This document shows, in pieces, positions 39,001 through 42,000 of a DNA stretch of 64,000 nt (position 1 is the first letter of the stretch; the number at the start of each line of letters is the position of its first letter). The stretch is taken from NCBI GenBank assembly GCA_051251855.1, contig JBPOGI010000005.1, positions 294,742-358,741 on the forward strand, given 5' to 3'. Made by a program: the position numbers. This stretch comes from Roseibacillus sp. GTDB taxonomy: Bacteria; Verrucomicrobiota; Verrucomicrobiia; Verrucomicrobiales; Akkermansiaceae.

Positions 39001-42000
39001 GCCGCTTGATTCCGGTAAGTAAAACTGAGTCTTTTAGCTATTCATTTACCTCAAAGTCTGATGGTTTCGGCCATCAGGCTTTCTTGTTCCAAAGGGCCCC
39101 CATTTTTCAACCAATCCGATGATTTCTCTAGTACTGACCGGTGGCATCGCCAGCGGCAAATCGACCTTGGCTAATCTTCTTTCTCAAAAAATTGAGAATC
39201 TTCTCTTGTTCGATAGTGATGCCGAAGTCGCCCAACTGTTAACTGAGCCCGACGTACTTGATGAGGTCAGAGCTTCTCTGGGAGATGGTTGTTTTGAAGC
39301 GGGAGAGCTCGACAAGTCCAAGGTCCGCAAGTTGGTGTTCTCGGACGTTTCTGCTAAGCAGAAGCTTGAGGCAATTCTTCATCCCAAGGTGCGAGAGCGT
39401 CTGGGAGAGATGTCTCGTAAGGGACAGCGCGAAGGAGCTGATGTGCTCCTCGCTGATATTCCACTCTATTTCGAGACGGGTTGGAAGTGGGACAACCGCG
39501 GGGTGCTGGTAACCGCTTGTCCAAGAGAGGTTCAGAAAAAGCGTATTGGAAAGAGACCGGGGATTGATGAAGAGGTAGCGGAGTCGATTCTCTCGAACCA
39601 ATTGCCTTGGGAGGAGAAAATTGCAGGGGCGGACCAAGTATTCTGGACCTCGGGCGAAGCGGCCTTCCTTGCTGAACAGGTGGAGGTATTCGTGACTAAG
39701 CTCAATGGTCGTATTGAGCATGATCGTGAAAAACGAGGACCTGTCTGTAATGTCGAAGTTCCGGCAGTCGCAGATCTTAACGAGTTAAGGACGCGTCCTT
39801 TGGTTGATTTACTTCAGCTTGCGAGTGACCTCCAAATCAAGAATACGGGAGCGGAAAAAGGGAAATTGGTTTTTGATATCTTTTGCAAGCTCGGGAACTT
39901 TGGGAGTGATCTTCAAGCGACGGGAGTGGTTGAGAAAACAAAGGATAGCTTTGCGATGTTACGTGATCCGGGTCGCAGCTTCAAACCTGGGCCGGATGAT
40001 GTCTATTTGGGGGCTAATCAGGTGAAGGATTATCGCTTGGGAGAGGGGCATCTCGTGAAGGTGAGAGTGCGTCCGCCTCGGGGTCGGGACAATTATCTTT
40101 CGGCAAGTGAGCTTATTGAGATTGAGAAGCGGCCTGCTTCACAATTTACAGCGGGTGACGAGTTTGACGTGCTGACTTCTGAGTTTCCGGAAGACCGCTT
40201 TCACCTTGAGACGAATGACGAGAAAGACCTGGCCGTTCGCCTTGTCGATTTGGTAGCTCCGTTAGGCAAAGGTCAACGAGGTCTCATTGTCGCTCCACCG
40301 CGGGGAGGAAAGACGGTGCTCCTAAAGCAAATTGCGCGATCCTTGCAAAGTAATCATCCTGAGGTGGAACTTGTGATTCTTCTGCTTGATGAGCGCCCAG
40401 AGGAGGTGAGCGATTTTGAAGATACGGTAGATGCGGTGGTCTTTAGTTCTACTTTCGATGAGACTTCCAAGCGTCACGCTCAAGTTTCAGACCTAGTTCT
40501 TTCGAGAGCGCGTCGCATGGTAGAGGACGGAAAAGATGTCGTGATTCTGCTCGATAGTCTGACTCGATTAGCTCGAGGCTATAATAATGCGGCCAGTGGT
40601 GGCCCCATTGGTTCGGGCGGAGTAAATCCTACAGCTCTTGCCAAGGCGCGTAAGTTCTTTGGGGCGGCACGAAATGTGGTCGATGGTGGCAGTCTTACCA
40701 TTTTGGCTACTTGCCTCGTTGAGACGGAGAGCCGCATGGATGATGTGATCTTCGAGGAGCTCAAGGGGACAGGAAACATGGAGATCCGTCTTGATCGTGA
40801 TCTTGCCGAGCGTCGGATTTACCCTGCGATTCACATTCACCAAAGTGGAACCCGAAATGATGATCGTCTGTATCACCAAGAGGAGCTTCCTCGGGTTATT
40901 GATTTACGGCGTCATCTTGCTTCGATGCCGATTGGAGAGGCTGTGGAGACCTTGATGAAGCAGCTGAAGGCAACAAAGACCAATGCTGAATTTCTCCTCA
41001 AGGGGCTTCGCTAGAAGGAGAGAAGGATTAGAAGGGGGAATCCCAGTAACCTTCGTCCCATACCCAGAACTCGAGGTCGAGCTTGGCCTGAGCGAGCTGG
41101 TTGCTCTCTAGTTGATTGAGGAGGCCCTTCATCTCTGCGAAATACTTGAGTATGAGTTCAGGTTGATTGGGGGGAGGATTAGATTTTGCTCTGCTGATCT
41201 GATTCTTGAGCTTCTCTTCCTTTTCGATGAGATCTCTATAAGTCGACTTGACCCGCTGGAGGCCATAGTTCTCTCGCTCAAGCCTCTGAGCGAGTTGGCT
41301 GCGGAGAAGTTTGACTCTCTCCTTGGCGACTCGGGCGCTCTTAGCTTGGCGACCGGAGAGGTCAAAGCTCTTATTCATGGAGCCAAAAAGGCGAATATCA
41401 CCAATCTTGGGATCGGTTTCGGTGCGGGAGTCGTAGAAGGTGGGAAGTGAGACTCCGGTGCTGAAAGAGGGAAGGCGGTCGAACTTCAATTTCCACAGTT
41501 GAGCGAGGCTGGCTTCAAGTTGTCCCGCAGCTTGCTTGAGCGCGAGGCGGCCGTATCCATTCTCGGTCGTGACTTGGTCGAGCCGATTCCGGTAAGAAAT
41601 GGATGGGGCAGTTTTTGGGACTGGGCTCCAGCTTTGGCCGGGGGTGTCGAGGAGAGAGTTCAGGGAGAGTTCCAGTCGGTCTCGTTGGTTTTTGAGGGAG
41701 GTTTCAGCGCTTTCTTTGGCTAAGCGAGAGGCGAGAAGTTCATCTAGAGTGGTGGGGAGCTTTTGATTTTGGAGTTCCAGCGCACCTCGTTCAATTTGCT
41801 CTTGGGTACGGAAGATTGAGTAGAGATTGGAATGGAGCCGTCGCTTGAGAAGCTCGAAGTCGAGGGATGCTTGGTAGTATTGGAGCTCTAAGGTGTATCG
41901 GCGGGCGTAGAGGCCAAGTGGTTCTGGTAAGGCGACGTTCCCGAGAAGGCGTACGCCATAGCTGTCCTCGGTCAGACTAGAAAGCTCGCCAAGAGCGCTA

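Follow-up and report, generated by a model that had tools for sequence, protein, structure and literature searches.

The 64,000-nucleotide stretch analysed here (the window), from a marine Roseibacillus bacterium, carries on its forward strand a single open reading frame in which a dephospho-CoA kinase (CoaE), the enzyme of the last step of CoA synthesis, runs on into the transcription terminator Rho. This raises the question of whether one bifunctional polypeptide is made from the frame, how the two genes came to be joined, and whether termination is thereby tied to CoA metabolism. The features of the locus are as follows.

36422..39022, + strand: upstream neighbour, a TPR-secretin gene of 866 aa (open reading frame and domains)
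39053..39082, + strand: 13-bp hairpin followed by a U-rich run, terminator-like by folding, between the secretin stop and the coaE-rho start
39119..41014, + strand: coaE-rho fusion reading frame, 631 aa, stop codon at 41012-41014
39119..39658, + strand: CoaE dephospho-CoA kinase core, residues 1-180 (Pfam/NCBIfam)
39140-39166, + strand: CoaE P-loop, G8-T16, within the kinase core
39659..39736, + strand: predicted last kinase helix, residues 181-206 (AF2), covering the site of the ancestral rho start Met of relatives
39682..39694, + strand: candidate internal start, GGAGG (39682-39686), 5 nt, then GTG (39692-39694, codon 192); not conserved in the genus
39737..39772, + strand: short coil connector, residues 207-218 (AF2, pLDDT 67-82)
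39773..39913, + strand: N-terminal helix bundle of Rho, residues 219-265 (helices predicted at 220-225, 228-237 and 247-260; aligns from E. coli Rho residue 2)
39914..40153, + strand: Rho OB-fold primary RNA-binding domain, residues 266-345 (Pfam, E. coli alignment)
40154..41011, + strand: Rho RecA-type ATPase, residues 346-631 (Pfam, E. coli alignment)
40295-40315, + strand: Walker A, PPRGGKT, within the Rho ATPase
40592-40627, + strand: Q-loop, within the Rho ATPase

One reading frame with an intact kinase and a complete Rho

The frame has no internal stop codon. Pfam places CoaE (PF01121) at residues 5-179 (E 3.3e-31; 108.8 bits against a cut-off of 27; model positions 4-176 of 180), Rho_RNA_bind (PF07497) at 268-338 (E 2.4e-12) and ATP-synt_ab at 373-576, while Rho_N did not reach E 0.01 on the 631-aa product. 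NCBIfam matched CoaE (TIGR00152) at residues 6-189 with 99.7 bits (cut-off 65.55) and Rho (PRK09376, NF006886) at 220-626 with 480.4 bits (cut-off 315; model positions 3-410 of 413); the stricter Rho model TIGR00767 gave 468.6 bits, under its cut-off of 509.45. The frame and its domains therefore agree with an earlier note, which had described an uninterrupted 631-aa CoaE-Rho frame. Its further statement that neither a stop nor an ATG occurs in residues 89-280 was right as to stops, but an in-frame ATG at codon 98 reduces the ATG-free range to 99-279. A consensus scan of 38800-41600 for promoters and terminators returned nothing useful near the gene start.

The kinase half shows two hallmarks of CoaE, the P-loop GxxxxGKS/T and, after strand 2, a conserved Asp, and a comparison of 105 fused and unfused family members found residues G8, G13, K14, D34, H88, P89, P115, L116, Q161 and Q187 invariant. 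Membership in the mycobacterial long-CoaE family was rejected, since NF002879 covered the kinase part only, with 85 bits against a cut-off of 215. Genome-wide, the fusion gene gave the only CoaE match over the cut-off, the next ones (E 0.06 and 0.8) being limited to the P-loop. We also considered an archaeal-type dephospho-CoA kinase as a hidden second enzyme and rejected it, as no PF04019 was found in the genome. Hence the fused CoaE is the sole one, as had been proposed. Among the 121 family genomes, 117 gave a CoaE match and 114 exactly one; one genome (G050) has two, both fused, and two others (G035 and G115) have one CoaE gene each, split by a contig end. Since fused genomes hold no CoaE apart from the fused one, the fused kinase must supply their CoA, and from this we infer that residues 1 to approximately 180 form a working dephospho-CoA kinase.

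By alignment, residues 219-631 appear to be a complete group-A Rho. In the OB fold, F278, R282, Y296 and Y326 correspond to E. coli F62, R66, Y80 and Y110, and M280 replaces F64; the equivalents of F62, Y80 and Y110 are the aromatics of the primary RNA site. In the ATPase, G397, K398 and T399, D424, E425 and R426, D479 and R579 are invariant in sets of 105 and 69 sequences, as is S480; those other than S480 represent Walker A/B, the catalytic Glu and the Arg valve/finger. The secondary RNA site shows substitutions relative to E. coli: throughout the family, K283 and T286 of the Q-loop have become P496 and S499, and in the R-loop R539 replaces K326. Residue counting on the E. coli alignment identified the GGPIGSGG loop as the Q-loop, which ruled it out as the R-loop. 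Moreover, contig 1 carries another Rho_RNA_bind gene, in line with the unfused paralogue noted earlier; its 574-aa product is K/A/P-rich, with a long basic region and no recognisable N-terminal domain. Two Rho genes are present in 112 of the 121 family genomes.

The fusion is a recurrent trait of an old gene pair

A match was found in 118 of the 121 family genomes, and 109 of these were classified as fused (55), separate (53) or incomplete (1). The nine genomes matched and left unclassified (G005, G006, G019, G023, G024, G036, G086, G111 and G119) had no usable coordinates or a pair split over contigs. All eight genomes of the Roseibacillus genus are fused, and the 55 fused genomes span nine genera, which substantiates the proposal that the fusion recurs across the family. 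One genome (G015) previously listed with both halves in one open frame does not have such a frame under table 11, as a single in-frame TAG lies between its coaE and rho.

There is next to no chance that the frame is a decaying gene or a product of faulty assembly or sequencing. All that speaks for this is the metagenome-type assembly (4.96 Mb in 13 contigs, 95.4% complete). Against it stand the same fused frame in the 55 genomes and the presence of both Pfam domains in each of the 120 database proteins listed at 630-672 aa. In addition, the junction was recovered in Logan contigs of two runs with 0 differences and 0 indels, on a 25-kb contig in one and at a depth of ~4454 in the other, although both runs may be source samples and hence not independent of the assembly. 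The catalytic residues of both halves are also invariant. We therefore rejected error as an explanation: the fusion is a genuine trait of the lineage.

The unfused relatives suggest how the trait came about. The two genes are fused or directly adjacent in 108 of the 109 classified genomes, and in 30 of the 53 separate pairs the closest rho ATG and the coaE stop overlap (offset -4 in 16, -8 in 9, -11 in 2, -14 in 2 and -23 in 1), pointing to translational coupling. In nine more the ATG lies 0-9 nt past the stop, and in five a single in-frame stop separates the genes. In the other classes of the phylum, coaE is directly upstream of rho in 39 of 48 genomes, an order kept more widely than simple co-expression usually explains and suggestive of a genuine functional connection. 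One paper also cites a STRING association of Rho with coaE in Chlamydia.

On a gene tree of 105 rows, 12 changes between the fused and the separate state were counted, and well-supported branches make at least 10 of these unavoidable, whereas labels shuffled on the same tree required 35.5 changes on average. The fusion has arisen more than once, from a gene pair that was old and tightly coupled. In the ancestor, as in unfused relatives, a rho ATG overlapping the coaE stop (ATGA and similar) would already have coupled translation of the two genes, and one-base indels or the loss of an in-frame stop would have merged the frames. Roseibacillus has since lost the ancestral start Met of rho, which leaves the fused chain as the likely only form of this Rho. 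With overlapping start and stop codons a single base suffices for fusion, so its recurrence needs no selection.

The junction and the question of an internal start

A fusion of genes could be genetic only, with free Rho and CoaE made as well as, or instead of, the fused chain, either by initiation at GTG188 or GTG192 or by cleavage of the connector. We consider this improbable in Roseibacillus. The earlier note had itself raised a GTG at codon 192 preceded by GGAGG as a possible separate Rho start, and the site does exist, with 5 nt between motif and codon; its weight is reduced by its occurrence in two of the eight genus members only and by the lack of a Shine-Dalgarno signal in the genome. 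Between residues 185 and 222, GTG188 and GTG192 are the only start-like codons, and GTG188 likewise occurs in two of eight. No peak of Shine-Dalgarno motifs was seen upstream of the starts of 2257 long reading frames, and GGAGG fell within -20..-5 of the start in 45 of them, a statistic based on crude start calls (the first ATG of each long frame).

The DNA of the junction places the linker Met of fused forms at the rho start of their unfused sisters. In 18 of 29 aligned fused orthologues from other genera the linker keeps this ancestral ATG in frame, and dual products are plausible there, but none of the eight genus members retains it. In addition, the AF2 model of the fusion (mean pLDDT 82, pTM 0.69) has both domains confidently folded and approximately 10 residues of coil between them, and helix 181-206 is continuous with the kinase, so that the candidate starts fall inside a confidently predicted kinase helix. 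Given the lost start Met, the unconserved GTG192 and GGAGG, and the missing Shine-Dalgarno signal, the fused polypeptide is likely the sole product in Roseibacillus. The chain may still be separated by proteolysis after translation. Going by E. coli abundances, it would be strange for a minor metabolic enzyme and an abundant terminator to be made in equal amounts.

Overall, we favour, with a probability of about 0.68, one bifunctional CoaE-Rho polypeptide derived from an ancestral overlapping pair, with no need for a new regulatory mechanism. The last kinase helix would extend to residue 206 and lead, through the coil of approximately 10 residues, into a complete group-A Rho. This Rho part would form the usual hexamer, load onto nascent RNA and release RNA polymerase, and the RNA-loading face of each ring would then bear six kinase domains. 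The main consequence would be the obligatory 1:1 synthesis and co-localisation of both activities. That both are retained, that a hexamer forms, that there is a single product and that the halves do not cross-talk, we infer from the data above. The linker is among the observations that count against so plain a fusion: in the five closest genus members, residues 190-218 are conserved to 72-86%, on a par with the domains (61-77% for the CoaE core), and a neutral tether would not be expected to behave in this way. Linker conservation falls to 21-38% in the two members furthest away.

Does the kinase regulate termination?

A further reading makes the kinase a part of Rho that regulates or senses, or makes Rho a scaffold for the kinase. 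Occupancy by ATP, dephospho-CoA or CoA, or the bulk of the kinase on the RNA-loading face, would tune RNA loading or ring closure, and termination by the fused Rho paralogue would depend on CoA or energy status; the CoaE and Rho of unfused species would be binding partners, with the fusions as Rosetta stones of their contact. We regard this as unlikely. The conserved order in the phylum and the family and the frequent overlap of start and stop in separate pairs are consistent with it, as are the repeated fusion of the same two genes in the same order and the short, partly helical and fairly conserved connector of the genus. The kinase also sits at the N-terminus, the site of known Rho accessory regions (PMC11347177). 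Nevertheless, the family has seen at least 10 to 12 switches between the fused and the separate state, so the covalent link is not required for the role of the pair, and fusion is mutationally cheap. Linker length in fused forms varies between 19 and 127 aa, and such a spread speaks against a fixed geometry of the two domains. Likewise, as the only CoaE and with every catalytic residue kept, the kinase would be an enzyme first, unlike degenerate sensor domains. A complex prediction of the CoaE domain against the Rho part, from 105-row alignments, scored 0.00 twice and, run without controls, speaks neither way.

Nothing in these results supports the proposal that termination is tied, through the fusion, to the CoA or dephospho-CoA status. 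The same proposal had the kinase act on, or sense, dephospho-CoA-capped RNA, and its two parts fare differently. CoaE adds its phosphate to the ribose 3'-OH of dephospho-CoA; in RNA capped with dephospho-CoA this hydroxyl holds the phosphodiester bond to the next nucleotide. With the 3'-OH thus occupied, phosphorylation of the cap by the fused kinase is chemically unlikely; binding or sensing of capped RNA is left standing. A bolder conjecture, which we find distinctly doubtful, is that CoaE and group-A Rho are one functional unit across Verrucomicrobiota, and perhaps the PVC group, covalent in half of the family and non-covalent elsewhere, in which the substrate or nucleotide state of a kinase on the RNA-loading face gates RNA loading. 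If so, one of two Rho factors would terminate according to CoA or energy supply, and the fusions would have revealed the partnership.

Significance

No description of a CoaE-Rho fusion was found in the literature searched, and CoaE, PF01121 and 'dephospho' have 0 occurrences in the accessible text and supplement of PMC11347177. The databases hold hundreds of copies, which NCBI and JGI label 'Rho' only; such names hide the sole CoaE of a genome and call for caution by annotators. Among the copies are proteins of R. persicicus and R. ishigakijimensis, 84% and 77% identical to the one described here. N-terminal accessory regions of Rho are at present studied as disordered, RNA-binding or phase-separating segments, and a folded metabolic enzyme with intact catalytic residues at this position is a different kind of add-on. 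The phylum-wide order, the start/stop overlap, the at least 10 independent switches and a fusion 'hardened' in Roseibacillus make a testable comparative case: either there is a link between CoA synthesis and termination in these bacteria, among them the family of the gut genus Akkermansia, or overlapping genes have drifted into fusion and out again, in textbook fashion, with no functional change.

Comparison with known systems

Among other proteins, eukaryotic PPAT-DPCK (COASY) is another CoaE fusion. Mycobacterial CoaE with its C-terminal domain (PDB 6N39, NF002879) likewise indicates that CoaE tolerates covalent partners; here, in contrast to both, the partner is not metabolic. Stand-alone bacterial CoaE (PDB 4I1U, 1UF9, 1VHL and 1JJV) resembles the kinase half over its full length and in the P-loop, the conserved Asp and the His-Pro and Pro-Leu motifs, whereas in the fusion the C-terminal helix runs on into Rho and the kinase is presumably held in a hexamer.

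Canonical hexameric Rho (E. coli; PDB 1PV4, 3ICE and 8Q3Q) aligns end to end, residues 2-413 with residues 219-626 (E ~1e-104). The N-terminal bundle, the OB fold, Walker A/B, E211 and R212 are kept, as are the bicyclomycin-pocket residues listed in PMC11347177. The fusion differs in its folded N-terminal addition of 218 residues, in Pro for K283, Ser for T286 and Arg for K326, and in RNP1 SFAM for GFGF. Its genome also recalls the group A/group B Rho pairs of PVC bacteria (PMC11347177), in that the second paralogue lacks the N-terminal domain and has a long basic region. Rho Type 2a, with its N-terminal 'initial region' in the same source, shares extra sequence ahead of the N-terminal domain; the additions described there are intrinsically disordered, whereas the fusion has a folded enzyme with intact catalytic residues and AF2 block pLDDT of 82-91 over residues 1-200.

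Further counterparts are the unfused sister pairs and the Akkermansiaceae MUL2 loci, for which the gene order secretin, dpck, rho is drawn in PMC13174399. These have the identical genes, order and upstream secretin. The overlapping sister pairs keep two reading frames with overlapping stop and start, whereas in Roseibacillus there is one frame and the rho start has been lost.

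The CoaE-Rho frame and its conservation

CoaE and Rho were found in one uninterrupted frame, as the earlier note had claimed:

Window 39119..41014, + strand: coaE-rho fusion ORF, a single 631-codon frame

The Pfam matches were CoaE (residues 5-179, E 3.3e-31), Rho_RNA_bind (268-338) and the ATP-synt_ab fold (373-576), and NCBIfam recognized CoaE at 6-189 (TIGR00152, 99.7 against a cut-off of 65.55) and a whole Rho at 220-626 (PRK09376, 480 bits against a cut-off of 315). Among solved structures, bacterial dephospho-CoA kinases aligned to residues 2-188, and residues 2-413 of E. 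coli Rho aligned to 219-626 without large gaps (E about 1e-104). The junction was spanned, with 0 differences and 0 indels, by contigs of two public runs that are probably the source samples, one of them at a depth of ~4454. An AlphaFold2 model built from 69 fused homologues (mean pLDDT 82, pTM 0.69) placed the last kinase helix at residues 181-206 and the start of the Rho N-terminal bundle at 220, limiting the predicted coil between them to ~207-216.

Across 105 fused and unfused sequences, CoaE residues G8, G13, K14, D34, H88, P89, P115, L116, Q161 and Q187 were invariant. Invariant positions of the Rho half are Walker A, D424-E425-R426, D479-S480, R483, T536, G550 and R579. With the bicyclomycin-pocket residues given in an excerpt of PMC11347177 as reference points for numbering, the coaE-linked Rho differs from E. 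coli Rho at the following elements. The Q-loop (window 40592-40627, residues 492-503) reads GGPIGSGG versus SGKVLTGG, with K283 replaced by Pro496 and T286 by Ser499 in 28 of 29 aligned orthologues (the relative's locus L031 has Arg); RNP1 GFGF is replaced by SFAM, and R-loop K326 by Arg539. These deviations are common to the family, and the Q-loop changes may affect how RNA is tracked through the central channel.

Kinase and Rho gene content

The coaE-rho gene carries the sole CoaE over cut-off in the 4.96-Mb assembly (95.4% complete), where no archaeal-type kinase (PF04019) was detected either, which agrees with the earlier claim of a single CoaE. It was the only CoaE in every fused genome. 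Across the family, 114 genomes gave one CoaE match, and G035 and G115 have one gene each, interrupted where a contig ends. In genus g13, genome G050 holds two full fused copies (L034 on contig C47 and L102 on contig C17) and three Rho_RNA_bind genes altogether. The second, unfused Rho reported previously was also recovered:

Contig 1, locus L004 607..2331, - strand: second Rho paralogue of the same genome (G000), 574 aa

It begins with ~205 K/A/P-rich, histone-H1-like residues, followed by OB and ATPase domains with no recognizable N-terminal bundle, and is of the 'group B / 2d' type reported for PVC bacteria in the excerpt of PMC11347177. Most members of the family have a pair of Rho genes: 112 of 121 genomes contain two Rho_RNA_bind genes, 8 contain one and 1 contains three.

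Distribution of the fusion

Among named proteins, those of Roseibacillus persicicus (84%) and R. ishigakijimensis (77%) are the closest, and all 120 listed matches (54-94% identity, 630-672 aa) carry both CoaE and Rho Pfam domains. NCBI and JGI name them 'transcription termination factor Rho', and one UniRef name starts 'Multifunctional fu...'. Fusion proteins are plentiful in public databases, though no description was found in the full-text literature searched (bioRxiv preprint supplements lay outside its scope) or in the examined supplement of a 2024 Rho survey. In a six-frame search, residues 1-350 matched in 118 of 121 family genomes. The locus was fetched for 109, the remaining nine having no usable coordinates, and ORFs were classified using HMMs made from the fused alignment, which placed 55 genomes as fused, 53 as separate and 1 as incomplete.

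Fused/classified genomes by genus of Akkermansiaceae
g1 (own genus): 8/8
g13: 10/10
g5: 11/12
g8: 10/12
g3: 6/12
g20: 5/11
g12: 2/11
g9: 2/2
g4: 1/1
g11: 0/9
g15: 0/11
g7: 0/3

Four g15 loci (L068, L077, L091 and L092) were ruled out as single ORFs, since their six-frame open-frame lengths of 731, 690, 691 and 709 aa cross in-frame stops under table 11.

Gene order and origin of the fusion

With the nearest ATG taken heuristically as the rho start, the coaE stop was overlapped in 30 of the 53 separate cases (offset -4 in 16, -8 in 9, -11 in 2, -14 in 2 and -23 in 1); the ATG lay 0-9 nt past the stop in 9, farther in 13 and was undefined in 1. A single stop codon (TAG in three, TAA in one, TGA in one) parts same-frame coaE and rho in five genomes, at L037 (G091), L054 (G038), L092 (G015), L099 (G017) and L105 (G046), which, as their sequences read, are one substitution short of fusion. 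In junction DNA of sister genomes (fused ...atcATGagcgaagat... versus unfused ...gccATGAgcgATGA...), a one-base shift joins the two frames, and the start Met of unfused Rho is the Met retained in many fused linkers. On a tree of the CoaE and Rho domains without the linker (105 rows, five truncated rows dropped), the fused or separate state has to change 12 times, and well-supported branches force at least 10 of these changes, compared with 35.5 on average for shuffled labels; gain and loss are not separable on this quick IQ-TREE search.

Gene order beyond the family was listed completely for 73 genomes of the phylum. Of the 48 that belong to other classes, 39 have coaE immediately upstream of a same-strand rho. 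Among the 19 from the same class but other families, this order was seen in only 1, because most of them gave no match to the N-terminal part of Rho. All 20 loci fetched from the 39 pairs of other classes have separate ORFs; therefore, within the genomes sampled, the fusion is confined to Akkermansiaceae. A STRING link between Rho and coaE is cited for Chlamydia in an excerpt of PMC8762339.

Upstream of the fusion we observed:

Window 35351..39022: genes for a 341-aa protein and an 866-aa TPR-secretin
Window 39053-39082: hairpin of 13 bp with a 4-nt loop and U-rich tail, 30 nt past the secretin stop and ~35 nt ahead of the coaE-rho ATG

Translated remnants suggest that the hairpin is kept in the genus, where it could act as a terminator or as part of a leader. 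The 341-aa protein gave no Pfam match; its gene and the TPR-secretin appear to be the end of a pilus-like 'MUL2' locus described for Akkermansiaceae, and the secretin gene upstream of coaE-rho fits the secretin, dpck, rho order at such loci (excerpt of PMC13174399).

One product or two

Of 29 aligned fused orthologues, 18 still have the ancestral rho ATG in frame, but 0/8 of the own genus do. Between residues 185 and 222, GTG188 and GTG192 are the only start-like codons in the window. The GTG192 and preceding GGAGG proposed as a separate Rho start are indeed present, but each GTG occurs in only 2/8 genus members and both lie within a confidently predicted helix. Moreover, no SD-like motif peak was seen upstream of 2257 long ORFs of G000, with crude start calls (GGAGG at -20..-5 in 45), and the coaE start has no SD; this genome seems to start translation largely without SD pairing. 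Because the ATG is lost, the GTGs are unconserved and in a helix, and an SD signal is lacking, we take the fused chain, from sequence and model, to be the sole form of coaE-linked Rho in Roseibacillus. In other genera, fused and free Rho may both be made. Unfused Rho begins with the conserved motif M-[ST]-E-[ED]-T, which is kept in linkers of fused g8, g5 and g12 orthologues (e.g., L018, L021 and L048); its retention would mean either that internal initiation persists or that the N-terminal motif has a function.

Interpretation

The comparative evidence for the fusion is solid. The best-supported reading is that the product would be a genuine bifunctional protein, in which an ancestral translational coupling of coaE and rho may have been frozen into a covalent link. 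We argue that this link is not mechanistically required, because switching is frequent and linker length in fused forms is variable (19-127 aa). In favour of a real functional tie between CoaE and Rho, such as the proposed coupling of termination to CoA status, are the deeply conserved gene order and the short connector, fairly conserved among the closest relatives; we consider this rival reading unlikely but still alive. In dephospho-CoA-capped RNA, the kinase's target 3'-OH is taken up by the RNA chain; the suggested phosphorylation of such RNA is thus unlikely. Rho proteins with an N-terminal accessory module are known; here, the module is a folded enzyme.
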